From the NCBI GenBank assembly GCA_965231005.1, contig OZ246405.1:546709-610708 (forward strand): a stretch of DNA of 64,000 nt. Direction: 5' to 3'. Below the pieces are notes generated by a model. The model was not told where the DNA came from and did not search any database. It worked only from the letters and a program-made list of their open reading frames with translations. A program made the translations under genes and the position numbers. Positions 1 to 17,969 of the stretch are shown in pieces. Source of the DNA: an uncultured Gammaproteobacteria bacterium (GTDB lineage Bacteria > Patescibacteriota > Patescibacteriia > Magasanikbacterales > UBA922). Position 1 is the first letter of the stretch. Each line of letters starts with the position of its first letter.

Positions 1-230
1 AAACCGAACAAGGCACCAATGACTGGCATACCAACAAGTGCGCCAAACGCAAGAACAGTACCATAACTTAAGCCTGGGGTTGATGCAGCTGCTGACGAAA
101 TCCAACCAATGCTTACAAGCGTGTCTATGACAAGACCACCAAATGAATATATGATTCCGGCAAGCAGGCCAAGAAGTCCAAATACAATCGTTTGAAATTT
201 TGTGTAAGAGATTATATTAATTTTTTTCAT
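1..230 (-). CDS. Hypothetical small membrane protein, N-terminal part only (gene runs off the window start)
   Basis: The reverse complement from the ATG at 230..228 reads MKKINIISYTKFQTIVFGLLGLLAGIIYSFGGLVIDTLVSIGWISSAASTPGLSYGTVLAFGALVGMPVIGALFGF..., which is hydrophobic with glycine zipper-like GxxxG spacing. The frame is open to position 1. It is absent from the ORF track because it is truncated. Confidence 0.45.
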   Translation of the reverse strand, partial: MKKINIISYTKFQTIVFGLLGLLAGIIYSFGGLVIDTLVSIGWISSAAASTPGLSYGTVLAFGALVGMPVIGALFG

Positions 231-269
231 ATTTATTATTGTACTTCAACAAATAGACATTCGCAACTA

Positions 270-309
270 AGAGATATTAAAATAAAAACTCCACATGATG
301 TGGAGTTTT
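270..309 (-). terminator. Rho-independent terminator downstream of clpP (minus strand)
   Basis: The palindrome aaaactccacat/atgtggagtttt at 285..309 gives, on the minus strand, a hairpin followed by a T-rich run (reverse complement of gagatattaaaataaaaa). Confidence 0.5.
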
Positions 310-325
310 AGATTTGATTCTTTAT

Positions 326-925
326 TTATGAAATTACTTTGTCTACAAGTCCATAATCAACCGCTTCCTGCGCACTCATGAAATAATCTCTGTCAGCATC
401 TTTTTCAACTTTCTTTAAATTTTTTCCAGTATGTTTTGCAAGAAGTTCATTCAGCTGTTGTTTCATTTTTACAATACGTTCAGCATGAATTTGAATGTCA
501 CTTGCTTGTCCTTGTGTACCACCCATAACCTGATGAATCATTACTTCTGAATTTGGTAAACAAAATCGTTTTCCTTTTGCACCAGCAGTAAGGAGAACTG
601 CTCCCATACTTGCTGCCATACCAATACAAATTGTTGAAACATCTGGTTTAATGTATTGCATGGTGTCGTAGATTGCCATTCCTGCAGTAACAGATCCACC
701 AGGAGAGTTGATATACAATTTAATATCTTTGTCTGGATCTTGATTTTCAAGAAATAACATTTGAGCGATAACTGTATTTGCGACTACATCATTCACACCA
801 CTTCCTAGGAAAATAATTCTATCTTTTAATAGACGAGAATAAATATCATATGCTCGTTCACCATAAGATGTTTTTTCAATCACTGTTGGGATAAGGTGTT
901 GGTTTGTCATTGTTTGGGTAGTCAT
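326..925 (-). CDS. clpP: ATP-dependent Clp protease proteolytic subunit
   Basis: The full 199-aa ORF shows hallmark ClpP sequence: [44 protein letters not shown], the catalytic Ser context GMAASMGA, and MIHQ. Confidence 0.92.
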
Positions 926-985
926 ATATATTTTTCTTTAACTATTAGTGAGTATATCACGGCTCTTGTTTTCAATCTAGTTTTT

Positions 986-1053
986 TATTAGTTACTAGTT
1001 AATAGTTATTAGCTTTTGTAGGAAGTATTAGTAACTAATAACTAGTAGCTAAT
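986..1053. repeat. AT-rich inverted-repeat intergenic element (family member A)
   Basis: ttagttactagttaatagttattagc ... ttagtaactaataactagtagctaat. The arms are built from the mutually reverse-complementary words ttagttactag and ctagtaactaa. The same word family recurs at 44471..44527 and 62098..62189. Confidence 0.4.
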
Positions 1054-1064
1054 ATCTAATAATC

Positions 1065-2069
1065 TTATATTTCAACCTCTTGCAATGCAAGTTTATCAAT
1101 ATGCATTACAGCATCAAGAACACGTTCAACAGCATTGTGGATGGGCCCTTCTATAGTAAATCCAGCAGCTTTTTTGTGACCACCGCCACCAAGGTGCTTT
1201 GCATACTGAGCAACATTGGTATCATCTCTGGTAGTTCGAAAACTTCCTTTTACATTTCCGTCTTCGAGTTCTTTCAAAATAAGTCCAGCTCTTCCATCTT
1301 GCAGATTATTCATAAAGTTTGCAACCCCTTCTATTTCAGTTTCTTCCACACTATGTTTTTTAATGTCTTCCTGTGTTACATAGGTATGAACAATGTCGGT
1401 TTCTTTGTGATGAATAAGGCGAGAAAGAATTGCTCCCCAGAGTTGTAATCCTTTTACAGATTTATCTTTAAATGCTGATTGTTTAATTAATTTTAAATCA
1501 CCACCCTTTTCAATCAACTTGCTTGCAATAATAAGCGAGGCAATTGTGGTTCCACCATTTGTAAAATTATCTGTATCTGTTACAAGTCCTGTCAGGAGAC
1601 AAGTTGCAATGTCTTGATCAATTGTAATGTCATTGTAAACAAAAAATCTATAAATAATAGCAGTTGTTGAAGATTCTTTATCCATCACAATATTATAATC
1701 ACCAAAGTATTCGTTTGTTGCATGGTGATCAAAGTTAATAATAGTAGGTTTCTTAGTTAGTTTTTCAACATGTTGGTCTATTCCTGCATATCGCAAGTCT
1801 CCAGAATCAAACAGAATAAGTGTATCAATTTCACTATCATTCCATACAGATGCATCGTTTGAAACGCTCGCGCTGTGTGGCAGATAGGCTAGTTTTTTTG
1901 ATATATCTGTTGAACAGTACGCAGTATAATCTTTTCCAATTTTTTCCAAAAAGTGAATAAACGCAGCAACAGATCCCAAGGTGTCGCCATCTGGGTTCTG
2001 GTGGGGGACCAACATCATTTTGTTGGCTCCTAGAATATGTTTATAAATTTGTTTTGCTACGTGCTTCAT
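1065..2069 (-). CDS. DHH/DHHA1 phosphoesterase, NrnA-like bifunctional oligoribonuclease/pAp phosphatase
   Basis: The 334-aa ORF carries DHH-family motifs: HQNPDGDTLGS, NFDHH and the C-terminal DHHA1 GGGGH (HLGGGGHKKAAGF). Confidence 0.8.
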   Translation of the reverse strand: MKHVAKQIYKHILGANKMMLVPHQNPDGDTLGSVAAFIHFLEKIGKDYTAYCSTDISKKLAYLPHSASVSNDASVWNDSEIDTLILFDSGDLRYAGIDQHVEKLTKKPTIINFDHHATNEYFGDYNIVMDKESSTTAIIYRFFVYNDITIDQDIATCLLTGLVTDTDNFTNGGTTIASLIIASKLIEKGGDLKLIKQSAFKDKSVKGLQLWGAILSRLIHHKETDIVHTYVTQEDIKKHSVEETEIEGVANFMNNLQDGRAGLILKELEDGNVKGSFRTTRDDTNVAQYAKHLGGGGHKKAAGFTIEGPIHNAVERVLDAVMHIDKLALQEVEI

Positions 2070-2280
2070 AATAGTGTTTCCGGCAGAATTTAGCCGATGG
2101 ATGATTATATACTAGGGTCGTTGTGGTGTCAAGGGGATATATCCAAATAAAGAAATAAGAGAAAAAATAAAAAATAAATACATATAATCTGAAGTATTTT
2201 TATAAAGTACCTCTTTCTTTGTTGAAATTTCATTTTTCATATGATAAGCTCTTCGCACCATCTCAACCAGGAGTAGAATA

Positions 2281-3471
2281 GTGAGATATTCTCTGATGTT
2301 TTTGTTTATAGCTGTTCTCAGCATGAGCGGCTGTGTAAAGGTCACCCACCTGACAGAAAGGGGAGGAGGGGTTGGCTACAAAGTGAAGATCCAGGAGCCA
2401 ATGGTAACTCGGATCGATCCAGATCTGAGCGGCTGCAACATGGCATTTTTGCCGTTCGCATCACGGACCGGCGCAGTCAGCATCGATCTCGATCTCGCCT
2501 TTGCGAATCGCAAGCTCGACGTGATTGTCGGCTTTGTGAAAGGGCGTTCCAAAAAGTGCAAAGTTGTTTCGCCGAACAAGGCTCAACAACAACTGTCAAA
2601 GTCAGGACTCATTCAGCCGTACGCACAGGCACTACGCAATTACGCAACCAGTGGCATGATCGACGAGTCAGTCATCCGAAAAGTGGCAAACGCGCTCGGT
2701 GTTGACATGCTGATCCAGACCAAGCTGCTTCGATTCGACGCAGATATATCAACGAACCAGTTCCGCGCGGCCAGAGTTCGCTTTATCGCCTTTTCAAAGA
2801 AGACCGGTCGAGTTGCATATTCTGTTGAATCGAGCGGTGCTGCGAAAAAGTTTGATACGCGTTTTACACACAAGTCTGTGAAGCGTGATCATTCCTCAGC
2901 AGCCTTGTACACCATGATCGCAGGAGGGATTGGTGCTGTAGGTCTGCTCGTTACTCTTTTCGCCGACGACAATGATCTCACGCCAGTTGGTATTAGTATG
3001 ATGATACCAGCTGCTGGTATCCCGCTTGCTCGCAGGGACGGTGAGGTATTCAGGAAAGAGGAGGGAGATCACTACGATAAATCCTCCAGGGGAATGAGCG
3101 TACAGGCCGGGTTTTCCAAAGTACTCCACAAAGGACTTGTCCCAGTCTTGAAACTTGCTGGGCTTTACACCAGGCGTAGTGGTCAGAAGAATTCGACAAC
3201 ACAAGTCAAACCAATGAGTGTTGGAGAAAGGACTGGCTTGAACGATCCCTCTAGTGATCCAAAGTCGTTGACAGGATTGATGCCAATCTGCCAGCGACTC
3301 TGCAAAGCCTACGTCGGACTCGACTACAACACACAAGGAATTGCTGCAAGGCGGAAGGCGCTTCAATGCACCAAGCGCTGTGTTCAATACAAAGACAAGA
3401 GATATCGAGCATGCCTGCGTAATGCGGCTGTTCCTGGCGACGTCCACAGCTGTGAATCACTGCCGCGCTAG
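2281..3471 (+). CDS. Hypothetical lipoprotein with a Cys-rich C-terminus, encoded on a GC-rich segment
   Basis: A GTG start at 2281 lies 8 nt after an AGGAG. The lipobox-like signal is MRYSLMFLFIAVLSMSGC. The gene body is visibly much richer in G+C than the flanking AT-rich DNA. No recognisable catalytic motif was found. The C-terminus is CQRLCKAYVGLDYN...CTKRCVQYKDKRYRACL. Confidence 0.55.
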   Translation: MRYSLMFLFIAVLSMSGCVKVTHLTERGGGVGYKVKIQEPMVTRIDPDLSGCNMAFLPFASRTGAVSIDLDLAFANRKLDVIVGFVKGRSKKCKVVSPNKAQQQLSKSGLIQPYAQALRNYATSGMIDESVIRKVANALGVDMLIQTKLLRFDADISTNQFRAARVRFIAFSKKTGRVAYSVESSGAAKKFDTRFTHKSVKRDHSSAALYTMIAGGIGAVGLLVTLFADDNDLTPVGISMMIPAAGIPLARRDGEVFRKEEGDHYDKSSRGMSVQAGFSKVLHKGLVPVLKLAGLYTRRSGQKNSTTQVKPMSVGERTGLNDPSSDPKSLTGLMPICQRLCKAYVGLDYNTQGIAARRKALQCTKRCVQYKDKRYRACLRNAAVPGDVHSCESLPR

Positions 3472-3498
3472 TTCTTGGTTGGTAAGGGGGAATTACCA

Positions 3499-3538
3499 AA
3501 GGGCACACTGAGTTTCACAATTCAGCGTTGCCCTTTTT
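3499..3538 (+). terminator. Putative intrinsic terminator after the GC-rich lipoprotein gene
   Basis: The stem gggcacactga ... tcagcgttgccc is followed by ttttt at 3534..3538. Confidence 0.4.
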
Positions 3539-3852
3539 ACTTTTTAAAATATCAATGATATAGACTATTTTGACTTTTTTAGCAGGTAGTTGACAAAATT
3601 AAGAAAATCACCTAAGGTATAGGCACTTCGAGTTTATTCGTAGTTCCTTGTGAGAGAGATGAAAATTGCTCAACTTACGGAAATTATGAATACACCCTAA
3701 GTAATGCCTATGTCATATTGGAAAAAAAATATTGAACCAATAAAGCCGTTTATTTGCTATGCAATTAGATGGGGCAGTACTAAGTAAAAAATCCCTTTTT
3801 TGTAGGGATTTTATGTTTTCTTGATCACCCTTTCATTAGAATAAGGTTACCT

Positions 3853-6800
3853 ATGAGATTTTCACATGCTAGAAAATTTATTATTTTTCTTACAGTAGGG
3901 CTTCTTGCATTTACGCCTATTCTTTCTGTATATGCGCAAGAAGCTGCACTGCCACCAGTGGATCCATTGATCGATGATCCTGCATTAGGTATTGACGAGT
4001 TACATGATCCAGCGTTGATTCCTCCTCTTGCATTTGATGATCCTGCTTTAGCAGAGCCTCTTCTTCCAGACGATGGACTGTTTCCACCAGAACCATTTCC
4101 ATTTGATCTTGCGCCAGACGCAACCATACTCGATCCATATCAGTATGTTGATGATCCAGCACTATTTATTGATCCACTTGTTCCACCACTTCCACCAGCA
4201 GATCCACCACCAGGATTAGCAGATGATTATATTCCACCAGACTTCTATCCAGATGATCCTCTTGTTGTTCCTCCATCTGTTGGGGACGATTATCTTCCAC
4301 CAGATGATTATCCACTTGTTCCGCCAGACATTGGTGATGATTATATTCCAGTTGTTCCACCATCTCCACCAGACTTACCAGAAATTGAAGTTCCACAATA
4401 CGCTGAACTTATGCGTTCGTTGCGTGATTTTGGAAATGATGAACAAACACAAGATGGCGAATACATCGATCCATACATATTAGAAGAACAACTAAATCTT
4501 TTTATTGATAAAGAGCGTGAAGAATTAAGCGAATTAGGTATTCCATCTCACAAGGTTGATAGATATGTAGAATTTTTAGAAGAACAACGGAATGAAATAT
4601 TTCATATTGATGAACCATGGTATCAAGAAATCGGCGATTATATAGGAGAAATCACTGATCCATTGTTTGACTATTTTCGAGATGATGTTGAATTTTCTCC
4701 AATGGAAGAAGCAGAGGGCATTCGTATTCCAGAACATCCATCAACATTTTCTTTTAGTAATGACAAAATTATTGTTGAATCATTACAAGATCCAACTGTT
4801 GAAGCAAATTCAGTCGCAGAGTTAGCTACATCGCTCCGAGATCTTGTCAGTATACGTCCTGTTGTTGCAGAACAAATGCTTCCTGTATTGAAAGATGTTC
4901 GTGCTGATGGAGAGGTTATTATTAATACACAAATAAAAGAACTTGCACGGTCACTTGAACACAATCCAGTAAAGATTTTTAACTATGTGCGCAACAACAT
5001 AGACTTCGAACCATATTACGGAGCAAAAAAGGGGAGTGTTGGTTGTCTGCAAGAAGCATTGTGTAATGACAAAGATACAAGTTCACTACTCATTGCACTA
5101 TTGCGTGCGTCTGGCATTCCTGCCCGATACAGAAAGACAGTTGCAATTGTTCCTGTTGAAGATTTAAAAAATCTTTTGGGAGTAGATGAAACAAAAACAG
5201 TGTTTGCGGCTTTTTATGCAAATAAGGTACCAATTCATACGCTTAAATCAGAAAATAATGGAAAGGACTTAACAACAGCTGATTTTTCTAAGGAAACAGA
5301 TTTTGCACTCGAGTGGGTACATGTTCAAGCATATTATGACTATGATGAGCGTGGTGGAAATATCACGAATTATCTTACATTTGATAGTGCAAAGACAGAT
5401 AAAGATGTTCAAGCAGCATTAGCAAATGAAGTAAAGAAACAATGGATTTCAATAGATCCTGTTATAAAGTCATACAAACGAGATAAAAAAACGATTCTTC
5501 CTGATACAACAAATATTAATGTTGAAACATTTTGGTATGACTATTTGAAATACAATGGTGACCTTACACCAAATGAAAAGTATCTTGCAGATTTAAAAAC
5601 AAAAACAGGAAAAGATCCAAAACAATTTTTATCTACAAAGTCACTGATTAAAAAAGAATACGGTATTCTACCAATCACACTTCCATACAAGATTGGTGAG
5701 GGTGTTCTTGGTGATGGTACAATGATAAAGAAAGAAATTTTTTCTGCAATGCCAGATAAATTTAGAGACACAGTAGAAATATCTTTGCTGAAAGAAAAAG
5801 ATAATTCAGTTGTTCTATCAAAAAAGTTTTATGGAAATGAAATAAATAATGTTGAACTAGACTTGTTATATAAAGGAGCAACTGCAGCTGATAAAAAAAT
5901 TATTGAAAAATATGGTGGTCTTGCACGAACACCTGCTGCACTTGTAGATATAACACCGTACTTTCTTTCGAGTAGTGGCTCATATGAAGGATCAACAAAA
6001 GTAAAAATTGGTGATGCACTTATTCTCCGATTTACCTATTCATTAAAAGGAAAAGAGTTTACAAAAAACGAAAAATTTTCTACAGCAGGGAATGCAGAAG
6101 GTATTTATGTTTCACTTTCAAAAACACAGACCGATCCATCGCTTAACTCTGATTCACGAATCTTGCTGCGTGGAAATGTAGGACTTGCTAGAGAATATTT
6201 AAAGCGAATGGATGAATCTCAAGCACTCTTAGGAGGAGTATTTGGATATGACACTGATTTGTTCTTTTCTCGAGCAGTTGTTACACAAAATAGAATTCTT
6301 GGTGTAAAAAATAATATTCCAACAACATTTGATTTCAAAGGGCTTTCTATTGATGCACAAGCTTATATTAATGACTATTCAAATAGAGGTGATCATGAAT
6401 CGCATCGAAAAGATTTCCGACTTCTTTGGGGATTGCAAGCGTCAAACGAAGAAAGTAATCTTTTTACTGATGTTACAGGACTAGACGCAATTTCTTCAGT
6501 AGAGGGATTGCAATATGCTTACAAAAATCCAAATACATATAAGGTATATAAGATCACAAAGACAAATAAATCTGACATTGATAAACTTTCTCTTAGTGCA
6601 AATACGATTGCGAACATGAAAAAAGATGTTGATAATGGCAATACTATTATTACACCAGACAAGTTCGTTAAAAATGGTGTATGGAAAGGACTGTTCTATA
6701 TTTCTCTTAAACCAGATTGGACAGGGACATATGCAATTGGAGAGCAGAGTCAGCAGAATGGTGCATGGACAGTAGAAGAATTTCTTGACAGTAAGTATAA

Positions 6801-8484
6801 AGATGAAGATGGTTTAGATCGCAATGGATATATAAATAAATTTGATAATGAAACGTATTATTATGAGGATAATGCTGATACTGTAGCTGGGATTCAATGT
6901 CGTTTAGAAAATAAGGAAAAAAATACAATTAAAGCATTAGATGGGTGGAAGGATGCATATGGGTATCCTTGTAAGTATGATTCTCTTTCTTTTACGGGAA
7001 TACAACATTCATTTGCACTTGCATCAAATGGAGCATATTTTTATCGACCGAGTGTCTATTCGTATTGGGCTTCGCAAAGTGCAGTTACTTCAAAGATGCA
7101 AGGATATATTGACAATATGCCTTCTGTTGAAGATACCTATACGTTTCAATTTTCAGAGATCGCAGGGACATATATTTGGAGTATTTGCAAGAAGAAAGGA
7201 AAGAGAAATTGTGATAATAATGAGTATGCAACAATCTATTATTCGCCTGGTGCAGGAGGTCACAGTTCTGGAAAGGTAGTTCAACTGATGGGAGGATTTT
7301 TGGACAAAGCTGAAAACGATGGTCTTATTCCAAAGATTGGTTTTCCTATTACAGATGAAATACCTGTCGAGAACAAGACCTTTAAAACAAAGGGTGTATA
7401 CCAGTCATATGTAAATGGAAAACAATTTTATTACGTAAAGAGGGGTCATAATACATATTATTCATATGGAAAATTAACAAAGGTACATGATGACAAAGAT
7501 GGCGTGATAGGCTCACTTGGTTTTCCAGTAGATGATCCTAATATAAGAAATGGTCGTGCATACCAAGAATATCAGGGAGATATGGAGATTGGTTGGAATT
7601 TAGGTAATGGCTCAACAAAAGTTGAAGGATTTAAGAATTATCGTTGTGAATTGTATGGGAATGTTAAGGATCCTTTTCGATTGGGATTATATTTAGCTAT
7701 TGGAATATATGATACAGCAATACAAACTATAGCAGATATTATTGATTTGATTATTCTTGTTGAAAAATTAAGAAATCCTACTGCTGAGGATGTTAAAAAA
7801 GTAAAGGAATTTGTTGATGAAGTTCTAAAGCTAGATATTAAAAATGATATTATACCTTTCTTAAAGTCTGTTAGTGGTACAGCATACAAAAATCTTATAG
7901 ATGAATATGATACATCTTTGGGTGCGAATGGATGTTCTGCACGAACAAATTATATTGGTGGTCGACTTGCTGGTCATGTAATTCTTATATATTTTTCTGC
8001 ATCAAAACTTTCTGCACTTTCAAAAGTAAAAATTCTAAATAGAGCTGCTATTGCATTTAGTAAGTTAGATGAAGTCGCAAAGATTGGTAAATTTGGTAAG
8101 AAGTTTCGCTTTGTAAATGCTGATGATGCAAAGAAATGGAAGGAAATTATGAAGATTACTGATAGTAATGAAAAAGGGAAAAAGGCTCGAGATTTACTAG
8201 CTGATGTAGTGCCTCATACGAATATTGAAAGAAAAATTGAAGATAGAATTGTTGATATATATGATGCTAAAACAGGTTATGCACATGAAGTAAAAATGTG
8301 GAAGAATAAAGTGTCACATGATGGATTGGTAAAAGATCAAATTCAAAAAGATATTGATTTAATGAATAAGCGTGGTCCAGATGAATATCGGCCTATATGG
8401 CATTTCTTGGAAGGCGAACCTACTGAACCATTAAAGAAAATTATGGAGGAGAATGGTATCGAATATATACTTTATATTAACTAG
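3853..8484 (+). CDS. Giant secreted protein (1543 aa) with a transglutaminase-like cysteine-protease core and a C-terminal PD-(D/E)xK-like tail
   Basis: A signal peptide (MRFSHARKFIIFLTVGLLAFTPILSVYAQ) is followed by Asp/Pro-rich repeats (DDPAL, DDYIPP, DDYLPP). The transglutaminase-like signature is GSVGCLQEALCNDKDTSSLLIALLRASGIPARY followed by EWVHVQAYYDYD, giving a candidate Cys-His-Asp triad. The C-terminal approximately 120 aa contains RIVDIYDAKTGYAHEVKMWK, which fits a D...ExK nuclease pattern. Confidence 0.7.
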   Translation: MRFSHARKFIIFLTVGLLAFTPILSVYAQEAALPPVDPLIDDPALGIDELHDPALIPPLAFDDPALAEPLLPDDGLFPPEPFPFDLAPDATILDPYQYVDDPALFIDPLVPPLPPADPPPGLADDYIPPDFYPDDPLVVPPSVGDDYLPPDDYPLVPPDIGDDYIPVVPPSPPDLPEIEVPQYAELMRSLRDFGNDEQTQDGEYIDPYILEEQLNLFIDKEREELSELGIPSHKVDRYVEFLEEQRNEIFHIDEPWYQEIGDYIGEITDPLFDYFRDDVEFSPMEEAEGIRIPEHPSTFSFSNDKIIVESLQDPTVEANSVAELATSLRDLVSIRPVVAEQMLPVLKDVRADGEVIINTQIKELARSLEHNPVKIFNYVRNNIDFEPYYGAKKGSVGCLQEALCNDKDTSSLLIALLRASGIPARYRKTVAIVPVEDLKNLLGVDETKTVFAAFYANKVPIHTLKSENNGKDLTTADFSKETDFALEWVHVQAYYDYDERGGNITNYLTFDSAKTDKDVQAALANEVKKQWISIDPVIKSYKRDKKTILPDTTNINVETFWYDYLKYNGDLTPNEKYLADLKTKTGKDPKQFLSTKSLIKKEYGILPITLPYKIGEGVLGDGTMIKKEIFSAMPDKFRDTVEISLLKEKDNSVVLSKKFYGNEINNVELDLLYKGATAADKKIIEKYGGLARTPAALVDITPYFLSSSGSYEGSTKVKIGDALILRFTYSLKGKEFTKNEKFSTAGNAEGIYVSLSKTQTDPSLNSDSRILLRGNVGLAREYLKRMDESQALLGGVFGYDTDLFFSRAVVTQNRILGVKNNIPTTFDFKGLSIDAQAYINDYSNRGDHESHRKDFRLLWGLQASNEESNLFTDVTGLDAISSVEGLQYAYKNPNTYKVYKITKTNKSDIDKLSLSANTIANMKKDVDNGNTIITPDKFVKNGVWKGLFYISLKPDWTGTYAIGEQSQQNGAWTVEEFLDSKYKDEDGLDRNGYINKFDNETYYYEDNADTVAGIQCRLENKEKNTIKALDGWKDAYGYPCKYDSLSFTGIQHSFALASNGAYFYRPSVYSYWASQSAVTSKMQGYIDNMPSVEDTYTFQFSEIAGTYIWSICKKKGKRNCDNNEYATIYYSPGAGGHSSGKVVQLMGGFLDKAENDGLIPKIGFPITDEIPVENKTFKTKGVYQSYVNGKQFYYVKRGHNTYYSYGKLTKVHDDKDGVIGSLGFPVDDPNIRNGRAYQEYQGDMEIGWNLGNGSTKVEGFKNYRCELYGNVKDPFRLGLYLAIGIYDTAIQTIADIIDLIILVEKLRNPTAEDVKKVKEFVDEVLKLDIKNDIIPFLKSVSGTAYKNLIDEYDTSLGANGCSARTNYIGGRLAGHVILIYFSASKLSALSKVKILNRAAIAFSKLDEVAKIGKFGKKFRFVNADDAKKWKEIMKITDSNEKGKKARDLLADVVPHTNIERKIEDRIVDIYDAKTGYAHEVKMWKNKVSHDGLVKDQIQKDIDLMNKRGPDEYRPIWHFLEGEPTEPLKKIMEENGIEYILYIN

Positions 8485-8490
8485 AAATAT

Positions 8491-8937
8491 ATGGGAAGAT
8501 TAATTGACTACAATTTTGAAAAATATTCAGCAAAGGATATGGTTCAGTCAGTTGAAGAGTGGGGCTACAAGGCACATTTTAAGCCAGGTGTTTATGGAAA
8601 GCAGGAGGAGGGGTTTTGGGTTGAAGGTGTTCCAATGAATATAAGGTTGCCAGATATTGCTGATTTAGAGAAATTTGAAAAGGGGGGGGCAATGGTTCCT
8701 ACTATTCGTTGGGAAACCTACGATGACATGTATTATGTCCCAGATCATATGGAAAAAGGAAATCATGAAAGGAATAAAGAACTTCTTGCAGAACATGAAA
8801 AGCTATTCATGAAACTGAAAAGAAAGTTTGGCAAGAAAAGTGGAGAAAATCCAAAAAAGGTAAAAGACAAAGAATGGATTTTGGAGCTGCAGGGGAAAGG
8901 TGGTTTTAAAAGTAAGGTGAAGAAGTTATTTAGATAG
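8491..8937 (+). CDS. Hypothetical 148-aa protein, candidate immunity/partner protein of the upstream giant protein's C-terminal domain
   Basis: The gene starts 7 nt after the stop of the 1543-aa gene and has no signal peptide. It has a paralog immediately downstream. It contains a G8 homopolymer at 8682..8689. Confidence 0.55.
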   Translation: MGRLIDYNFEKYSAKDMVQSVEEWGYKAHFKPGVYGKQEEGFWVEGVPMNIRLPDIADLEKFEKGGAMVPTIRWETYDDMYYVPDHMEKGNHERNKELLAEHEKLFMKLKRKFGKKSGENPKKVKDKEWILELQGKGGFKSKVKKLFR

Positions 8938-8969
8938 AATATATTTTGTATATTGAATAACATAGATAT

Positions 8970-9421
8970 ATGAGCAAACAGTTTCACTATGATCATGGAA
9001 AATACTCAGCAAAAGATATTGTTAAAGCTGTAGAAGAGTGGGGGCATAGGATAAATTTTCAATCGTGCATTCCTGGAAAGAGAGAAGAGGGTTTTTTAGT
9101 TGAAGGTATTCCTATTTTAGTTAGACTCCCAAATGTAGATTATATTGAAAGGGTAATTCTTCCTAAGGGGGGGAAATGATAACGACTGTTAAATGGATGA
9201 CATATGATGACATGTACTATGTTCCAGATCATATGGAAAAAGGAAATCATGAAAGGAATAAAGAACTTCTTGCAGAACATGAAAAGCTATTTATGAAAAT
9301 GAAACGCAAGTTTAGAATGAAGAATCTTAAGCAGCCTAAACAGATAAAAGATAGGGAATGGATTTTGGAATTGCAAGGGAAAGGTGGTTTAAAAAGTAAG
9401 GTAAAAAAATTGTTTGGATAA
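8970..9421 (+). pseudogene. Frameshifted paralog of 8491..8937, either a phase-variable gene or a pseudogene
   Basis: ORFs 8970..9179 and 9176..9421 are together colinear with 8491..8937. Shared sequence includes YSAKD.V..VEEWG, GF.VEG.P and TYDDMYYVPDHMEKGNHERNKELLAEHEKLFMK. The frame breaks at a G7 tract (9167..9173). Inserting one more G gives ...LPKGGEMITTVKWMTYDDMYYVPDH, matching copy 1 (...FEKGGAMVPTIRWETYDDMYYVPDH). Confidence 0.6.
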
Positions 9422-9439
9422 ATAGGAATTGTAAGTTCT

Positions 9440-10099
9440 ATGAGTATTGAAATCACAACAACATTACAACGGATAGTAACTTTCTTTAAATTTTCTATAA
9501 AGAAAAAAGAAGAAGAGCTTGTGATTAGACAACGAAGAAATTTCGTACCAATAGTATTTTGGTTAATCTTCCTTTTGTTTATTTTTGCCGTAGGTTACTT
9601 GGATTATAAAGAGATGGGAGTTGAGGCATTTATTCCCAATGATGGGAAGAAAATTTTAGGTCTAATTGCTTTCATAGTAATTATATATATGATTACAAAA
9701 AGTAATATAGTAGAAACATTAAAAACGCGTGCGCTGGTATTTAAATATCCTGAAAAAGAAATTTGGTATGACGGTATGAAAATGCCAATAGACAGGGCAA
9801 ATCATTTTGGCTTGTATAAGGATGCAAGTGCAAGGCACTACTATTATAGTATTGTATTAGCCTATGACGAAGGAGATGAATATGATATAGGTTTAGATGA
9901 CATGATTTTTTTGCCGACAAGATTTACAAAACTTTTTCTTATTGATGTAGCCAATGAAGCGAATACATTTTTAACAAATAACAGCCATGTTATAGATAGG
10001 GAAATGGATGTATTAGAGAAAGTTATTATTGCTGTATACAGCGGAATAATGTTGTTCCTCCTTTATCTAATTTACATAGTGACGAGAGTTTTATTCTAA
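9440..10099 (+). CDS. Hypothetical integral membrane protein
   Basis: A 219-aa ORF with several hydrophobic helices (IVFWLIFLLFIFAVGYL, ILGLIAFIVIIYMI, VIIAVYSGIMLFLLYLIYIV). No recognised motif. Confidence 0.45.
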   Translation: MSIEITTTLQRIVTFFKFSIKKKEEELVIRQRRNFVPIVFWLIFLLFIFAVGYLDYKEMGVEAFIPNDGKKILGLIAFIVIIYMITKSNIVETLKTRALVFKYPEKEIWYDGMKMPIDRANHFGLYKDASARHYYYSIVLAYDEGDEYDIGLDDMIFLPTRFTKLFLIDVANEANTFLTNNSHVIDREMDVLEKVIIAVYSGIMLFLLYLIYIVTRVLF

Positions 10100-10108
10100 A
10101 TAAAAAAT

Positions 10109-10783
10109 ATGTGGTATAAAAAACTCACAACCATTCCGTTTGCAAATATAATACTTGTCTTAGTGTGTTCTTGTGTTGTAAGTTTTATATTTCTTGCATA
10201 CAGAATTTACTACACCGGAGCTTTAATGTATGGGTTTTTAATATGGAATTTATTTCTTGCTGGAATTCCATTCCTCCTTTCTCTTATTATATTTTATTTT
10301 TATCGCAGTCATCCAAAAAAAGTAGGGTTTTTTATCCTTGCATTTTTATGGCTTTTGTTTTTCCCAAACAGTCTTTATATTATTACAGATTTCATTCACC
10401 TGCGTCCTAGAAATGGAGTTCCGTTATGGTTTGATTTAGTTCTTATTCTTTCTTTTGCATGGGATGGACTCTTCCTAGGATTTATATCTTTACAAATCAT
10501 TCATGAAATTATTGCCAAAGCATGGAACAAAGTCGTTGGTTGGGTAACGGCGTTAAGTGTCTTGTTTTTGAGTAGTTTTGGCATATATCTTGGAAGATTT
10601 TTGCGTTGGAATAGCTGGGATGTATTAAGTGATCCCAATGAGTTGTTATATGATATTGTTGACCGGATTGTAAATCCATGGATTCATCCAAGAACTTATG
10701 GAGTTACGATTATGTTGTTTTTGTTTTTTTCAACGAGTTATGTACTGCTTGTTCAATTGGGTAAACAGAAAAATAGATTGTAA
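10109..10783 (+). CDS. Polytopic membrane protein, DUF1361-like
   Basis: A 224-aa ORF. The conserved-looking motif GIYLGRFLRWNSWDV recalls the DUF1361 family signature. It has multiple TM helices. Confidence 0.5.
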   Translation: MWYKKLTTIPFANIILVLVCSCVVSFIFLAYRIYYTGALMYGFLIWNLFLAGIPFLLSLIIFYFYRSHPKKVGFFILAFLWLLFFPNSLYIITDFIHLRPRNGVPLWFDLVLILSFAWDGLFLGFISLQIIHEIIAKAWNKVVGWVTALSVLFLSSFGIYLGRFLRWNSWDVLSDPNELLYDIVDRIVNPWIHPRTYGVTIMLFLFFSTSYVLLVQLGKQKNRL

Positions 10784-10792
10784 TGTGTTTAT

Positions 10793-11377
10793 ATGAAGAA
10801 ATTTTCTAAAAGCATAAAATTCTTAAAAGAAATAAGATGGTGGAAGAAACTGTTGGTTCTCCAAGCTATCATTTTTGTTCCTGTGGTTGGTATTATGTTG
10901 AGTAGAGAAGTTTGTACAAGTGCTTATTCTGAAATTTCTGGAGGCTGTCAAGAATATATTTCTTTGTTGAAAAAAGTACAAGTTAGCTACGAAAATCCTT
11001 ACATTGGTCACACATACCTTTTATTGACACTACTTGGGATTTTGTACATTTTTTTTCGTCTTCCCTATGCATTTGGTAAGTGGACAGAAAAGAAATTTGA
11101 TTCTTGGAATATATACAAAAAAATATTCACAGTAGAATTTTTTCTCTTAGCTTTTCTTTTATTTTTACTTGTTATGCTCTTTACTTTCGTCTATGAAGGC
11201 AGTAGCTGTCTTCTCGATAATTGTAATAATAAGGTTGCGTTGCTCGAGTTAATGTCATTTTGGATACCTGACACTATTGTTGAGACAGTGTCATCTTGGA
11301 TTTTTTGGGCAGTACTGGCAGTCCCTCACGGTGCGGCATTCTTGATTCAAAGAAGTAAAAAATTGTCTAAAAAGTAA
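10793..11377 (+). CDS. Hypothetical membrane protein
   Basis: A 194-aa ORF with 4 predicted hydrophobic helices. It is co-directional and tightly spaced with its neighbours. Confidence 0.45.
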   Translation: MKKFSKSIKFLKEIRWWKKLLVLQAIIFVPVVGIMLSREVCTSAYSEISGGCQEYISLLKKVQVSYENPYIGHTYLLLTLLGILYIFFRLPYAFGKWTEKKFDSWNIYKKIFTVEFFLLAFLLFLLVMLFTFVYEGSSCLLDNCNNKVALLELMSFWIPDTIVETVSSWIFWAVLAVPHGAAFLIQRSKKLSKK

Positions 11378-11394
11378 GGTTTTAATAACATAAT

Positions 11395-14300
11395 ATGAAA
11401 ACCAGCACATACAAAAAATTTCTTGCAAAGATACTGATTGTATCCATGCTTGTATTACAAGCAGTGCCTATGTCTTTTGTGTTTGCTGTAAGTAATACAA
11501 ATATTGAGCCTATTGCATTTGAAGAAAAACCAAAAGTAGAGATTCCTGCAGTTCCAGAAGAGCGAACACAGGTAGACTGGTCTGCAGTTAATTGGAATCA
11601 AGAAATTATTCTTCCACGAGATGAAGATGACTTTTATAACAGGATTGAAGAACTCACAGCACAGGGAAGAGAAGAAGAAATAGAAAGAATGGAACTTAAA
11701 AAGTATAAGATGAGTGACGACACAGTGCTGGACTATTATAATGTTCCGCTGAAAGTGCGAGATATTGTATATGAGTATCGCGAGCGTGTTGGTGCATTGT
11801 CATTTGTAGATCCACTGGAACTAAAAAAATACAACAAACATATTGGATCAATTATTAAAGATCTTGGCTTTGGTCCAGATGAAAGAATAGAAGAATCTTT
11901 GGATGAAACTGAATTTTCAGAGTATGAGATTGTAGAGCCAAACACAACAGGGAAGTACGAACAAATGAGAATAGATACTGTGCCTTTGGACAGTCAAGAA
12001 AAACCAACATTCACTGTAGAAAGTGTTTCGGGTCCTGCAAAGAATAATTTTTCTTTGGAAACAGTAACGTTAGAGGCATTGGCAGAGCGTGCTGCAAAGG
12101 AATTCAACGCAGTAGAGCCACAACGAAAAGAAATCAACGATGAAGGAAGTGACAACGATTCAGGAATACAGCCACTTCGAAAAGAAGTAATGAATATATT
12201 TCAGCGTATTAAACATGCACTTTTTGGTGTGGAAACTGCACATGCAGAACCAACAACACCGTTTATAAAATACTACGACGGTATAGAAGACTATCCTGTG
12301 GATTTTGGATTTTACTATCTTTCCAACGTGCAAAACCAAGACGGTAGTTTTGGCAGATTTAACAAGTACGAAATAACAGGAGCAATTGCACTCACTGCAT
12401 CATCTGCTGGCATGACCGATAACACTCAGTTTATCTCTGCAGTAAATTATTTAAAAAATACAACGCCAGTAAACAATAAAGAAAAGGCAATTAAGGCTCG
12501 GCTTATGGTTGGGCTTAAACAACCATACAAGCCACTGCTTGACGACGTCTTAAAAAGTCAAAACGAAGACGGTGGGTTTGGTATTGATCCTGGATACAGA
12601 AGTGACGTAGACACAACACTAGAAATGATTGCAGCGCTATATGCTGGAAATTATTCAATTGAAGATGGATTTCCAAAAGCAATTGCATTTGTAATGAACA
12701 ATGTAAAGGCAGACGGCACCATGCGCTACACAGTAGACGGTGCACCAAGTTTTTATCTTATGAACAAAACTGCACAGACATTGTATCCATTTAAGCACTT
12801 GTTTGTTGGAAGTAAAGGTGGTCCAAAAGTAAAAGTTCAGACAAAGACAGATCCAATTCTTGCATACTTGAATTCTGCGGTAGACAGTGAAGGAAATCTT
12901 ACTGGCTCAGATGATGTCATAGACATGGCAATGACTGCACGAACATTCTTGCTTTACCAAAAACATGCTGCAAAGCGTGATGCCTTGCGTAAGCAAGTGG
13001 TACGCAGACAGTATGCAAATGGAAGTTTTGGATCATCCTTATATGCAACATTTGAATCTATTCGCGCCCTTGAGCAGCCAGATCTTGTTCTTACTGCGCT
13101 TTCTCACACTGGCTCGCTCATAAATAAAGAAACAGCTACACTAAAATTAAGTATAAAGAACCGAGGTCAGCGTGCAATTACAAATGCAAAAATTTATACA
13201 TTTATTGACAATGTAAATGTTAATCATGTTTTAGATTTAGCTGCAAACAAAGTAGTTATTAAGCCTCAAAAAACAGTAACTCTTATTATTCCAATCACAA
13301 ATACAGTTGGGTTTATAGGAAACACAGATATCAAATTTTACGTCGAAGGAATAGACGAAGCACGATATGACAATAACTGGATAGAAAAGGATTTTGTCTT
13401 TACACCTGCAAAAGATGGAAAAGCTGCCATGCCCCTGTATTATGTTGCACATCCATACACATACAAAGACAATAGTGGAACATACAGGGCTGGACTTGCA
13501 GTTCTTCATAAACACAAAGATGATCCAAACCGAAATAATTATATTATGCGGTGGAGAAAGAAAGGTACGACCAAGTGGTTGGGCACTGGCCCATCCAAGA
13601 CGTCTGGTGGTGGTGCTCTATTTAAGATGAATCTTACCCCAGGAGAGGTATACGAGGTAACTGCAGGTGTTGTACATAAAAAAGATTTCTCTGCGACATA
13701 TTACACTGATCTCACAACAGTAGTTGCTACAAACGACAACAAAAAGTATGTTGGTGGTCTTGAAGGTGTTATTACTGTTCACAATAAACCAACCGAAGGA
13801 CTGGATGCATCAGGATACTCTTTTATCAGTGGAGGAAAAATGACAAGTGACAGAGACGGAAAAATTACGCATTCACGAGTTGGTAACGGTTCAAATATAG
13901 TGCGGGTACAGACAGAACAATACGATCCAATTTGGACACGCTTTATTGCACAACCAGGCAAAACAACAAAGAATGTCCGTGTATTTACAAAACTAAAAAA
14001 AGATACACAAAAACCTATCATTAAAGTATTTGAAATTCGAAACATGGGCAAACTTGGAGTCATAAATCAAAGAGAGGCAAATGTTTTTGTAGAAGGAGAA
14101 GACAATGTTGCGCTCAAAGAAGCAGAGTTTTATTACTGGAGTCCAAAAACAAAGGTCTGGAGTTTTCTTGGGAAAACAGCAATGGATAGCAATGGCATAC
14201 AGGCATCATTGAAGTGGTTTGTTCCTAAAGATGTTGTTGGTGAGGGGCATAAAGTAAAGGCTGTACTTATTGACTATCAAGGAAACAGATCAGATGCAAA

Positions 14301-17300
14301 AGAATTTGCATTTAAAGCTACAGACGGGACACTCCCAACAGGGACAGTAACTGTGCAGAATTTAAAAAATAATACATGGAGTATTGGAGACACGAAAAAA
14401 ATTACATGGAACATTGTTTCTCCAAACAAGCTTTTATCATTAAATGTGCGACTGTATTACGGAGACAATGGAATGAGAGTTATTAAGAGTAACTACAACG
14501 TGAACAACACGTCTGTTGACTACTTCATGCCAATTTCTTCGTCCTATGTTGGAGACAAGACATACATTCAACTGCAAGTATGTGATGTAAATTATAACTG
14601 TGCAGATATAAACTCTCCAATATTCAAAGTAGACGATAATACAGCTCCACCACTACCGCCATGGCAAAAACCAAAAGTATTTGAAGGTATTATTAGCAAG
14701 TACGGACAAGACCGTATTCTTGAACAGGTATTCCATAATCCAGATGGGTCGATTGAAATTATCTACAGAGAATTTATAGGTCAGTACCACGATTCAAAAG
14801 GACAGAATAGAAAAATTACATACAGAAAATATGCAAACGGTAGTTGGCAGACTCCTATCGTGTTAGCTGACTACTGGTACAAACAAGGAACGACTGCAAA
14901 AGTCCAGTATAGAAAATTTGACGTTGTTCGTGACAACAAGGGAGAAATTCACATGGTGTATGAACGTGTTGTAGGTGAATGGCCAACTTCGTCCGATGCC
15001 ACAGAGGTGTACTACATTCATATGGCAAAAGGGAAGAAAGTTGTTGAAAGGAATATTTCCAATAGTTCTATTGGATCAGGATCACCAGAGGTTGTCGTTT
15101 CAAGTACTGGTGTTGTATCTATTATTTGGAGAGAGGGGTATAGTGCTGCGAAAAAGGGTGGAAAAACACTCCTTTGGACAGTACAAGGAGATGGTGCAAA
15201 CTCATGGTCCAGCAGAAAAGCACTTACAGATGACATAACACCATTTGCATCCATAACACTTAACGGATCTGATCCTACGGTTATATACAAATCCAAAGAC
15301 CAATTTTTCATCCGAGAGAAAAAAGGAAGTTCTTGGAAAGCTGCTGTCCCAATTCACAATCCGTACATTGCAAAGAAAACACTCGATGCATTTGCAGAAG
15401 ACAAGGCCAAATTTGATAAGATTGTAAAACAAGATCCAAATGACGCCACACAGTATACATGGTTGCCGTCTATCAAAACATTGGATCAACTGACAAAAGT
15501 ACTTACAGACAATAACTTTACAAAAAAGAATCAAATTATTGATGCATGGAAAAAACAAGATTTCTCCAGCGGTATTTGGGGAGTAAAGTTGTTTGCGCAG
15601 GGAAATGGTTTGTATGATGCTATTTATCGTTTCCACAGCCCAGAGTCAAATTATAGGTATGACATACGTACGCTTCGAACAAAAGTAGACTCTAATTCTG
15701 GAACACATGACTTTAAGTATTATGAAAAAATTGTAGAGCGAGAAGGTAAAGATGATGTACGCAGCTTTGTTGCACTGCAGCGACCAAATGGCTCATACAA
15801 CATCTTTTATGTAAAGACAGAATATCAACCAAATGGTTCACAATTTAGACGTGCTCGTCATTTTGTATTAGACGGAAAGAATCCATATTTTGACAAACGC
15901 ACGTCAGCGATTCCAATGACCGTGACCGAACAGATACTAGCCGGAGTCCAACAAGGGGACAAGCTAATGATATTCTTTAGTGGATATATTTCTGGAGAAA
16001 AAACTGCAATATACAACACTGCAGACTACACAACGTTGATTGATTACAGAATTGATCCTATCTCTCCAAAAGATAAACAAACAAATGTAAATTCAGGTGG
16101 AACGTTTGAATGGAAGACAACAGGTGGAAGCATTGATACATATGATGTATTGTTGGGAACAAATAGAAGTGCATTGCAAAAGATAAAAACAGGATTGCAA
16201 ACTACAAAGCATGCAATGCCAACACTACAATCAAATACAACATATTATTGGCAAGTTGTTGGGCATAAAGGAAACAATCGAATTGATAGTTCTGTTTGGT
16301 CATTTGTAACTGGCAATCTTGCAACACCAGTTATGACAATTGAAGATGCAGGAAAGGCAATCCAAAGTGGTGCAACACATACCTTTGCTAAGCAATTGAT
16401 TAAAACGAAAAAGTCAGCAACAATGACCATTAAAAATGCTGGTGCAGGAAATCTTGTGCTGTCTGGAAATCCATTGGTAAGTATTGTTGGTAATGATGCA
16501 AAAGAGTTTGCAATAACAAAACAACCAGGTTCTTCTGTTGCAGCAAATGGTTCAACAAGTTTTGATGTTGCATTTGAGCCAACAACGCCTGGACAAAAAG
16601 TTGCACAACTAAAGATTACACATAACGATAAAAAAGTAACAAATCCATTTGTCATTAACTTGAAAGGAGAAGCAGTACCGTTCTTTGTAACACTTTCAGC
16701 AGATAAGAAGAGTGGAAAGAACCCTCTTGGTGTTGACTTTACTGGTTCTGTTTCTGGTGGAAGCATTCTTGCGCCGGTTGCAATTGATTTTTCAAAACAA
16801 ACTATTAAGTCATCTGGTGGAAGTGCAGATGCAACAGGCAAGATTACAATAAAGAATAATGGAAATGAAATTGATTTGACTGGAAGTACAAGTAAATTTA
16901 TTTCAATTCCATATAATGTGACAAAGAACACAATGCTTGAACTAGAATTTAAGTCTGCAAAAGTTAATAATAATCATGGAATTGGAGTCAAAACAAAACA
17001 GGGGACAGTATATTTCCAATTTGCTGGTTCTGATGTTGGAGAATCAAGTGACTTAAATTATTACGACTATGCAGGAAATGATTGGCAAACATATAAGATT
17101 CAGCTTGGTCAGTTTGTAACTGGTAGTACAGAAAAACTTACATTTGTAAGTGGAGCACTTAGTTCAAACAGTGCATTCAAAAATGTAAAAATATATGAAT
17201 CAAATGCACCAGCATATGTGTATAGCTGGGATTTTAATAATGATGGAAAAGCCGATGTTGTTGGAAAGGATCAGCAAAAACCATACCATACCTTTACTAA

Positions 17301-17385
17301 AGCTGGCACACATAAGGTTGTACTTAGTGTAAGTGATGGAACCTATGTTGTGAAAGAAGAGATTGAGATTGTTGTTTCGGGATAA
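11395..17385 (+). CDS. Giant secreted multidomain surface protein (1996 aa) with prenyltransferase/terpenoid-cyclase-like repeats and a C-terminal ASH-like + PKD module
   Basis: The leader is MKTSTYKKFLAKILIVSMLVLQAVPMSFVFA. Repeated D/NG(S/G)FG motifs (NVQNQDGSFG, SQNEDGGFGIDPGYRSDVDTTLEMIAALYAG, QYANGSFGSS) are typical of alpha/alpha-toroid repeats. The C-terminus contains TMTIKNAGAGNLVLSGNPLVSIVG...FDVAFEPTTPGQKVAQLKITHND (ASH/choice-of-anchor-like) and the PKD-like PAYVYSWDFNNDGKADVVGKDQ...GTHKVVLSVSDG. Confidence 0.75.
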   Translation: MKTSTYKKFLAKILIVSMLVLQAVPMSFVFAVSNTNIEPIAFEEKPKVEIPAVPEERTQVDWSAVNWNQEIILPRDEDDFYNRIEELTAQGREEEIERMELKKYKMSDDTVLDYYNVPLKVRDIVYEYRERVGALSFVDPLELKKYNKHIGSIIKDLGFGPDERIEESLDETEFSEYEIVEPNTTGKYEQMRIDTVPLDSQEKPTFTVESVSGPAKNNFSLETVTLEALAERAAKEFNAVEPQRKEINDEGSDNDSGIQPLRKEVMNIFQRIKHALFGVETAHAEPTTPFIKYYDGIEDYPVDFGFYYLSNVQNQDGSFGRFNKYEITGAIALTASSAGMTDNTQFISAVNYLKNTTPVNNKEKAIKARLMVGLKQPYKPLLDDVLKSQNEDGGFGIDPGYRSDVDTTLEMIAALYAGNYSIEDGFPKAIAFVMNNVKADGTMRYTVDGAPSFYLMNKTAQTLYPFKHLFVGSKGGPKVKVQTKTDPILAYLNSAVDSEGNLTGSDDVIDMAMTARTFLLYQKHAAKRDALRKQVVRRQYANGSFGSSLYATFESIRALEQPDLVLTALSHTGSLINKETATLKLSIKNRGQRAITNAKIYTFIDNVNVNHVLDLAANKVVIKPQKTVTLIIPITNTVGFIGNTDIKFYVEGIDEARYDNNWIEKDFVFTPAKDGKAAMPLYYVAHPYTYKDNSGTYRAGLAVLHKHKDDPNRNNYIMRWRKKGTTKWLGTGPSKTSGGGALFKMNLTPGEVYEVTAGVVHKKDFSATYYTDLTTVVATNDNKKYVGGLEGVITVHNKPTEGLDASGYSFISGGKMTSDRDGKITHSRVGNGSNIVRVQTEQYDPIWTRFIAQPGKTTKNVRVFTKLKKDTQKPIIKVFEIRNMGKLGVINQREANVFVEGEDNVALKEAEFYYWSPKTKVWSFLGKTAMDSNGIQASLKWFVPKDVVGEGHKVKAVLIDYQGNRSDAKEFAFKATDGTLPTGTVTVQNLKNNTWSIGDTKKITWNIVSPNKLLSLNVRLYYGDNGMRVIKSNYNVNNTSVDYFMPISSSYVGDKTYIQLQVCDVNYNCADINSPIFKVDDNTAPPLPPWQKPKVFEGIISKYGQDRILEQVFHNPDGSIEIIYREFIGQYHDSKGQNRKITYRKYANGSWQTPIVLADYWYKQGTTAKVQYRKFDVVRDNKGEIHMVYERVVGEWPTSSDATEVYYIHMAKGKKVVERNISNSSIGSGSPEVVVSSTGVVSIIWREGYSAAKKGGKTLLWTVQGDGANSWSSRKALTDDITPFASITLNGSDPTVIYKSKDQFFIREKKGSSWKAAVPIHNPYIAKKTLDAFAEDKAKFDKIVKQDPNDATQYTWLPSIKTLDQLTKVLTDNNFTKKNQIIDAWKKQDFSSGIWGVKLFAQGNGLYDAIYRFHSPESNYRYDIRTLRTKVDSNSGTHDFKYYEKIVEREGKDDVRSFVALQRPNGSYNIFYVKTEYQPNGSQFRRARHFVLDGKNPYFDKRTSAIPMTVTEQILAGVQQGDKLMIFFSGYISGEKTAIYNTADYTTLIDYRIDPISPKDKQTNVNSGGTFEWKTTGGSIDTYDVLLGTNRSALQKIKTGLQTTKHAMPTLQSNTTYYWQVVGHKGNNRIDSSVWSFVTGNLATPVMTIEDAGKAIQSGATHTFAKQLIKTKKSATMTIKNAGAGNLVLSGNPLVSIVGNDAKEFAITKQPGSSVAANGSTSFDVAFEPTTPGQKVAQLKITHNDKKVTNPFVINLKGEAVPFFVTLSADKKSGKNPLGVDFTGSVSGGSILAPVAIDFSKQTIKSSGGSADATGKITIKNNGNEIDLTGSTSKFISIPYNVTKNTMLELEFKSAKVNNNHGIGVKTKQGTVYFQFAGSDVGESSDLNYYDYAGNDWQTYKIQLGQFVTGSTEKLTFVSGALSSNSAFKNVKIYESNAPAYVYSWDFNNDGKADVVGKDQQKPYHTFTKAGTHKVVLSVSDGTYVVKEEIEIVVSG

Positions 17386-17502
17386 AAAAGAAATAACGAA
17401 ATAGTGAAATAAAGAAACAAGGGGCTTTGGACAAATGCCCCAAATTACTAAACATATGGACTTTTTAGTTTATCCCCTTATTTCCTAATTTCTTTATTCT
17501 TA

Positions 17503-17526
17503 GTTGAGCCCTTAGGGCTTTTTTTA
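17503..17526 (+). terminator. Putative intrinsic terminator after the 1996-aa gene
   Basis: The hairpin gagccc tta gggct is followed by tttttt. A second hairpin, ggggctttggacaaatgcccc, lies at 17421..17441. Confidence 0.4.
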
Positions 17527-17945: not shown

Positions 17946-17969
17946 CACCCACAACGTCCTGGAGGGGAC

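Follow-up and report, generated by a model that had tools for sequence, protein, structure and literature searches.

A candidate Sec-exported polymorphic toxin locus with duplicated predicted immunity genes, the second split at a poly-G tract

In a 64,000-nucleotide (nt) stretch of contig OZ246405.1 (positions 546,709 to 610,708; hereafter the window, whose numbering is used unless another locus is named), a gene for a 1543-amino-acid (aa) protein with a transglutaminase-like core is followed by two copies of a small gene, the second of which is split into two open reading frames (ORFs) at a run of seven Gs. The locus raises the question of what the tail of the giant protein and the small genes are to each other, and whether the split copy is a switch, a loss by mutation or an artefact. 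The best explanation of the whole, to which we give a probability of roughly 0.6, is that this is a toxin-immunity locus in which the partner gene was duplicated long ago and copy 2 was broken by a slippage frameshift. The argument turns on the following features.

3853 to 8484, forward strand: gene for the 1543-aa protein, a candidate polymorphic toxin predicted to be exported (ORF list and translation)
8125 to 8481, forward strand: predicted C-terminal toxin tip, aa 1425-1543 (the last 119 aa), with a PD-(D/E)xK fold related to Tox-REase-7 (profile search, AlphaFold2 (AF2), Foldseek)
8491 to 8937, forward strand: copy 1 of the small partner gene, 148 aa, intact, without a signal peptide (translation)
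8682 to 8689, forward strand: G8 tract in copy 1, AAG GGG GGG G, encoding K-G-G in frame (sequence; the same in two ENA assemblies)
8970 to 9179, forward strand: N-terminal fragment of copy 2, 69 aa, with a TGA stop two codons past the G7 tract (positions 1-68 of the family hidden Markov model (HMM), E 1.3e-20)
9167 to 9173, forward strand: G7 tract in copy 2, one G below the in-frame length (sequence; the same in two ENA assemblies)
9176 to 9421, forward strand: C-terminal fragment of copy 2, 81 aa, starting at a native in-frame Met (HMM positions 68-148, E 1.2e-29)
8740 to 8807, identical to 9224 to 9291, forward strand: 68-nt block identical between the copies, with diverged flanks and excluding the G tracts (sequence comparison)

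Copy 1 begins 6 nt past the stop codon of the 1543-aa ORF and copy 2 begins 32 nt past copy 1, while the stop of the 69-aa ORF and the start of the 81-aa ORF overlap as ATGA. The coordinates, the G8 and G7 tracts and the split of copy 2 reported in the original prediction, which was made from the letters of this DNA, all match the sequence. Scans for a promoter or terminator between the two copies gave only background level, and a separate promoter or terminator between them was accordingly rejected.

The tail of the giant protein and its exchange between scaffolds

From its N-terminus the 1543-aa protein comprises a signal peptide, Pro/Asp-rich repeats, the transglutaminase-like core, a conserved body, LGFP-like repeats, a helical pre-toxin segment and the nuclease tip. 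A Sec-type signal peptide was read by inspection at aa 1-28 (MRFSHARKFIIFLTVGLLAFTPILSVYA/QE), and the core (aa 369-427; Pfam Transglut_core, E 1.3e-7) seems, also by inspection, to keep its Cys, His and Asp.

The original prediction had seen in the tail a pattern fitting PD-(D/E)xK nucleases, based on a RIVD...HEVK motif that is confirmed at residues 1465-1481. In a full search of 1.84 billion representative proteins, a HMMER profile of the tail found 42 relatives; the match reaches to within a few residues of the C-terminus in the full-length relatives listed (in one it ends 16 short), and several matches are short fragments. In an alignment of 27 tails R1465, D1468, E1479 and K1481 are invariant and Q1496 is also conserved. 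The predicted catalytic residues are D1468 (nt 8254-8256), E1479 (8287-8289) and K1481 (8293-8295), which form the D...(D/E)xK motif of PD-(D/E)xK enzymes on strands 2 and 3 in all 27 tails. An AF2 model of the tail built on the relatives' alignment (predicted local distance difference test (pLDDT) 96.1, predicted template modelling score (pTM) 0.88) has the topology alpha-alpha-beta-beta-beta-alpha-beta-alpha-beta, which contains the PD-(D/E)xK core fold. When this model was compared with the PDB by Foldseek, the top ten matches were all PD-(D/E)xK nucleases, with EndoMS as the best (5gke_A, E 5e-4, TMq 0.61) and NucS (2vld), CdiA-CT (4g6u_A and 4zqu_A), SfsA, AF1548 and Card1 among the others.

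The connection to a known toxin family comes by way of the relatives. In a lenient Pfam scan (E <= 1) five of the 27 tails match Tox-REase-7; the best scorer, P0019, is an orthologous giant that passes the cut-off of 25 bits with 27, followed by P0005 (19.8 bits) and P0025 (17.3 bits). The window tail's link to Tox-REase-7 is thus transitive, since it runs through these relatives (profile match E 2e-13). The published signature of Tox-REase-7 consists of GxxxE, IxD, ExK and Q (PMC3482391), and the motif of the tail family, G-x-x-x-E, (I/V)-x-D, E-x-K and Q, matches it. The window tail has IVD, EVK and Q1496, and its GxxxE site reads G1442-K-K-A-R1446-D1447, the Glu being absent; this replacement of the helix-1 Glu by Arg-Asp is also found in P0016, and most relatives keep the Glu. 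With the AF2 model, the Foldseek matches, the invariant D...ExK and relatives that reach the Tox-REase-7 threshold, the assignment in the original prediction was borne out, and the modelling strongly supports the tail as a PD-(D/E)xK nuclease-fold domain of the polymorphic-toxin type, which would presumably be an active and toxic nuclease.

The tail is not confined to one kind of protein. It also ends a 2216-aa SpvB/FG-GAP/RHS protein (P0039), an RHS-core fragment (P0036), a BACON protein with a PT-TG pre-toxin domain (P0012; PT-TG E 4e-13) and a subtilisin-plus-body protein (P0017), and P0006 is a 287-aa stand-alone ORF made of the pre-toxin helical segment and the nuclease tail. Conversely, the body carries other tips. 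A scan of JGI metagenomes with a conserved body segment gave 42 homologous loci, which come largely from groundwater small-cell fractions (0.1-0.2 um). Among the 29 body homologues with a complete 3' end, 7 keep the window tail, with homology running to the end, whereas homology stops at aa 1397-1438, just before the tail, in another 7 and at aa 1228-1289 in 15. Six alternative C-termini were compared with Pfam: two of them match EndoU_bacteria (L034 and L020; 33.4 and 37.8 bits, cut-off 25.3), and L017 has a NAGPA-like domain as its alternative tip. A recurrent tip with a '...PHPILS...AG...N.SGH' motif, without family assignment, was also seen in L026, L033, L040, L035 and L037.

The small gene downstream of the tail

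By direct sequence search neither small protein of the window has a significant match in Pfam or the PDB. The nature of the small gene was instead read from its distribution: all fetched loci were translated in six frames and searched with a family HMM. All 14 distinct loci with the tail have a member directly downstream of it, at a gap of 4-28 nt (106 nt in L010), and these 14 include the locus of P0012 (L011), whose body is unrelated to that of the window giant. The family was found in none of the 19 loci (not de-duplicated) in which the same body has a different tip and the available sequence extends at least 1 kb downstream. Since the small gene follows the tail in all loci of the first kind and is absent from those of the second, we predict from this sequence linkage that it is the cognate immunity or inhibitor gene, which agrees with the putative immunity or partner role proposed for it originally. 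The product of copy 1 would be cytoplasmic and would presumably bind the nuclease tip, protecting the producer and its kin.

The family, judged from sequence, appears to be new: Pfam has no model for it. In the loci surveyed it is linked to the tip without exception. Its members share an N-terminal module and a helical C-terminal module, both conserved, on either side of a variable middle; short homologues of 105-123 aa lack HMM positions of about 55-100, which places the K-G-G site (at about position 66) in this variable segment. At the locus of P0019 (L010 6582..7556) two family domains are fused in tandem in a protein of 324 aa, which suggests that the small protein may act as a pair. Two separate copies were found in the window only, among the loci surveyed, and the same holds for a frameshifted copy. 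Word-index homologue searches returned only itself for copy 1, one match for the tail and three for the family profile; no match came from scanning GTDB species genomes with the alignments of the tail and of the small protein, or JGI metagenomes with the latter. In L014 (2593..3917) P0006 is followed by the predicted immunity gene, an arrangement that resembles an orphan toxin-immunity cassette.

Could the same biochemistry serve another purpose? The tail could be a surface nuclease that scavenges nucleotides, with the small protein as its intracellular inhibitor, as barstar is for barnase. Small-genome, Patescibacteria-like organisms depend on external nucleotides, and the host here is probably of that kind, judging from the 1.23-Mb contig, from relatives in 0.1-0.2 um groundwater fractions and from the lack of Shine-Dalgarno motifs; moreover, the giant protein carries a Sec signal (by inspection) and no dedicated delivery machinery was seen nearby. 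However, the exchange of tips (REase, EndoU and others) among orthologous bodies and the occurrence of the same tip on RHS and PT-TG proteins are hallmarks of conflict rather than of nutrition, and a second giant in the window ends in a GIY-YIG nuclease and is followed by LRR and HEAT proteins. We therefore consider scavenging improbable. An export signal (by inspection), alternative tips on a conserved body, the same tip on unrelated scaffolds and a downstream gene that co-varies with the tip together characterise a polymorphic toxin, and the locus is very probably a toxin-immunity module consisting of a Sec-exported polymorphic toxin with its immunity genes. The 1543-aa protein would then be a surface or secreted scaffold bearing an exchangeable Tox-REase-7-type tip of about 120 residues.

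The G tracts and the split of copy 2

The two copies have a long history. Adding one G to copy 2 gives, as originally claimed, a full-length protein colinear with copy 1, here confirmed at 150 aa and about 64-65% identity. Identity to copy 1 is 48% for the N-terminal fragment of copy 2, over the matching part, and 79% for the C-terminal fragment. Between copy 1 and the repaired copy 2, nonsynonymous divergence (dN) is 0.21 and synonymous divergence (dS) 1.23 (dN/dS about 0.17); by segment, dS is 1.68 in the N-terminal half, 0.54 in the middle and 2.15 in the C-terminal third, with dN/dS of 0.08-0.2. These values indicate that the duplication is old, that both halves of copy 2 have been under purifying selection and that this copy worked for a long time. 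The 68-nt identical block is, from its sequence, probably a recent gene-conversion tract.

The first matter to settle is whether the frameshift exists. Homopolymers are classic error sites, and the original prediction had allowed for an assembly or sequencing error, in which case the true copy 2 would be an intact G8 gene. Contigs from ERR2281800 and ERR2281801 (PRJEB17505, of which no mention was found in the literature) show 100% identity with the window across 18.9 kb and 9.8 kb, G8 and G7 included, and gene callers on these contigs also give the 69-aa and 81-aa pieces. Both are MEGAHIT-style (k127) assemblies of different runs. In addition, the assembly kept the nearby G8 of copy 1 in frame, and no other frameshifted gene was noticed among the window ORFs examined. 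Because the window and the assemblies from two separate runs agree on G7, we regard the frameshift as real; an error is the least probable of the explanations considered here.

A second possibility is that copy 2 is still expressed in spite of the frameshift, either because the two pieces, coupled through ATGA, reassemble, or because ribosomal or transcriptional slippage by -1 on G GGG GGG yields the full-length ...PKGGEMITT... product. The split lies in the family's variable middle, where the 105-123-aa homologues lack the segment altogether; the downstream ORF starts at a native in-frame Met that overlaps the stop; the 324-aa fusion shows that the family tolerates rearranged architectures; and slipping by -1 at the tract brings back precisely the right frame. 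Yet no stimulatory RNA structure was found past the tract (z = 0.18), on which ground programmed -1 frameshifting was rejected, and no split homologue exists in the other loci surveyed. Across the window (1..64000) 24 gene starts were examined; their upstream regions are A/T-rich and Shine-Dalgarno motifs are missing from all of them. Genes here do without such motifs, which makes the G run unlikely as an internal ribosome-binding site, and this candidate role was also rejected. Continued expression of copy 2 is thus highly improbable.

A third explanation, and the one put forward in the original prediction, is phase variation, in which a selected tract would reversibly switch the second immunity gene, here an orphan or non-cognate one, on (G8) and off (G7, G9) and so give the population a mixed immunity repertoire. 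Several observations are in its favour. The reading frame is lost precisely at the tract and regained on adding one G: G8 or G5 would give a full-length copy 2 and G6, G7 or G9 a truncated one, so that a tract of at least 7 lies within an ORF whose frame is set by tract length, as a contingency locus requires. Apart from the frameshift, copy 2 has no lesion, and its dN/dS is about 0.17. The two tracts are the sole G or C runs of at least 6 in the 64 kb. Finally, AAG-GGG-GGG survives in both paralogues even though synonymous sites on its flanks are almost saturated (dS about 1.7) and GGG is rare, making up 10.8% of Gly codons, with GGGGGG at one of 94 Gly-Gly pairs, namely that of copy 1 itself; by a post hoc estimate, the chance of retaining AAG-GGG-GGG in both copies is roughly 0.004-0.04.

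Other observations speak against phase variation. The window has 3 G7 matches against an expectation of 1.2 +/- 1.3 from dinucleotide shuffles, and 14 of 100 shuffles reach 3, so that the count is within what composition predicts and a statistical over-representation of G7 runs was rejected. The original prediction took the homopolymer's matching codon position in the two copies as a sign of phase variation and not of random decay, and this does not follow, since paralogues inherit the tract and its shared position is explained by duplication. It had also proposed to compare tract lengths across strains or metagenome bins. The G8 and G7 lengths proved identical in the window and the two assemblies, which is a very small sample, and none of 13 related loci has a G or C run in the small gene. 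Seven alternative-length products (copy 2 at G5, G6, G8 and G9, copy 1 at G7 and G9, and the copy 1 C-terminal fragment) were sought among 15 billion proteins and none was present, whereas the three observed products were. Moreover, copy 1 is presumed to be the essential cognate gene, and a tract there would put it at risk. An in-frame G9 run was observed at L010 5369..5377, inside the giant toxin gene of that related locus.

Poly-G contingency loci are known in Campylobacter, Neisseria and Haemophilus. Like these, the window has a G run in coding sequence, a frameshift at the run and an otherwise intact ORF; the difference is that length variation is documented there, whereas none was seen at this locus and its relatives are without the tract. 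No precedent for a phase-variable immunity gene was found in the papers searched, and to our knowledge none of the polymorphic toxin systems described so far has phase-variable immunity. The Gn tract in essC of the type VII secretion system (T7SS) of group B Streptococcus is a further homopolymer contingency locus (PMC9900821). On balance we hold phase variation to be unlikely. A more elaborate form of it, in which the poly-G would be a contingency switch on an orphan immunity gene that stochastically varies which competitor toxin alleles are tolerated, with the copy 1 tract as a template for slippage or gene conversion, seems to us distinctly unlikely.

The most likely reading of the split remains a slippage frameshift in a redundant immunity paralogue. 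As the most mutable site in the gene, a G8 run is where the first lesion in a redundant paralogue is expected, without any selection for switching. In the history that we propose, the partner gene would have been duplicated long ago in the lineage, the N-terminal halves would have diverged and the C-terminal halves would have been partly homogenised by gene conversion. The ancestral gene would have carried K-G-G as a G8 run, and the run in copy 2 would have lost one G by slipped-strand mispairing, leaving the 69-aa and 81-aa ORFs. The split copy 2 would be the dominant genotype of the sampled population and, in principle, reversible. That the G7 state is in addition a fixed, non-adaptive mutation is a tentative view, for which we would give a little less than even odds; a share of the probability is assigned to none of the readings considered.

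Against the explanation as a whole must be set several points, some of which concern the tail and its partner and others the tract. First, the window tail has no significant match in Pfam or the PDB by direct sequence search (Tox-REase-7 does not appear even at E <= 10), so that its fold assignment needed the relatives' profile and the AF2 model, and it fails the 25-bit gathering threshold of Tox-REase-7 (PF15649). Second, with the helix-1 Glu replaced by Arg-Asp its nuclease activity is not guaranteed. Third, that the small protein would neutralise the tail by binding is proposed from linkage, and the AF2 model of copy 1 is unusable (pLDDT 41.8). Fourth, the tract lengths come from assemblies, with which a mixed G7/G8 population is compatible. 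Finally, the rare GGG-GGG kept in both copies hints at selection on the tract, which pure decay does not predict.

Known systems, the rest of the window and biological meaning

The closest of the known systems compared here is Tox-REase-7 itself (PF15649). Like the window tail, it is a C-terminal tip, and like the tail family described here it has the motif order GxxxE, (I/V)xD, ExK and Q, is found on RHS and Sec-exported proteins and is followed by a small immunity gene. The window tail differs in lying below detection by the model and in the helix-1 Glu, replaced by Arg-Asp, and the immunity families listed for Tox-REase-7 (ImmHEAT, Imm23 and Imm54) do not include the gene downstream of it. 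The tail model also finds some of its closest structural counterparts in the CdiA-CT/CdiI complexes 4g6u and 4zqu (E 2.5e-3 and 4e-3, probability 0.99-1.00), which follow the logic proposed here, a nuclease tip neutralised by a small cognate protein; they differ in type V secretion and in their proteobacterial hosts, the identity is 12-16%, and the immunity proteins are unrelated in sequence. WapA and WapI of Bacillus subtilis are a Sec-dependent, wall-associated polymorphic toxin and its immunity protein. There, too, a very large surface protein is exported by a signal peptide from a cell without an outer membrane, and an exchangeable C-terminal nuclease tip is followed immediately by the immunity gene. 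The WapA scaffold, however, consists of YD/RHS repeats and not of a transglutaminase-like/LGFP body, its tip is a tRNase and not a PD-(D/E)xK fold, and its host is B. subtilis, whereas that of the window is probably a small-genome, Patescibacteria-like bacterium.

The window holds a second toxin-like locus at 19081..29652. Its 3011-aa ORF (19081..28116) has a GIY-YIG nuclease domain near the C-terminus (about nt 27694-27882; Pfam 26.5 bits, cut-off 22.6). A leucine-rich repeat (LRR) protein (28119..28982) starts 2 nt past this ORF and is followed by a HEAT-repeat protein (29005..29652); proteins of both kinds, HEAT and LRR, figure among the immunity proteins of Zhang et al. 2012 (PMC3482391).

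Other features of the window stand apart from these loci. It has a strong positive GC skew over its length (1..64000), with nearly all genes on the forward strand. A 218-aa protein encoded on the reverse strand (35768..36424) has two Tudor/Agenet-like domains (Tudor_3 E 1.6e-12, Tudor_5 E 2e-11), which is unusual for a bacterium. ARAGORN called a second tRNA-Val(GAC) of 71 nt at 37308..37378, with the anticodon at position 31; the call is below the Rfam tRNA gathering threshold and may be a degenerate or false tRNA. Two regions, 17400..19080 and 37500..39400, have a G+C content of 0.42-0.44 against about 0.35 and hold overlapping fragmentary ORFs only, one of which (17970..18311) has a weak MUG113/GIY-YIG-like match; no Rfam family was matched in either region.

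In summary, giant Sec-exported proteins with a transglutaminase-like core and LGFP-like repeats are defined here as a previously undescribed polymorphic-toxin scaffold, whose tips are REase-7-like, EndoU and others. Little has been published on toxins in Patescibacteria-like epibionts. If the host is such an epibiont, these loci would be candidate means of attacking hosts or competitors without dedicated secretion machines, and if the switch should prove true, immunity repertoires would join the things that bacteria phase-vary.

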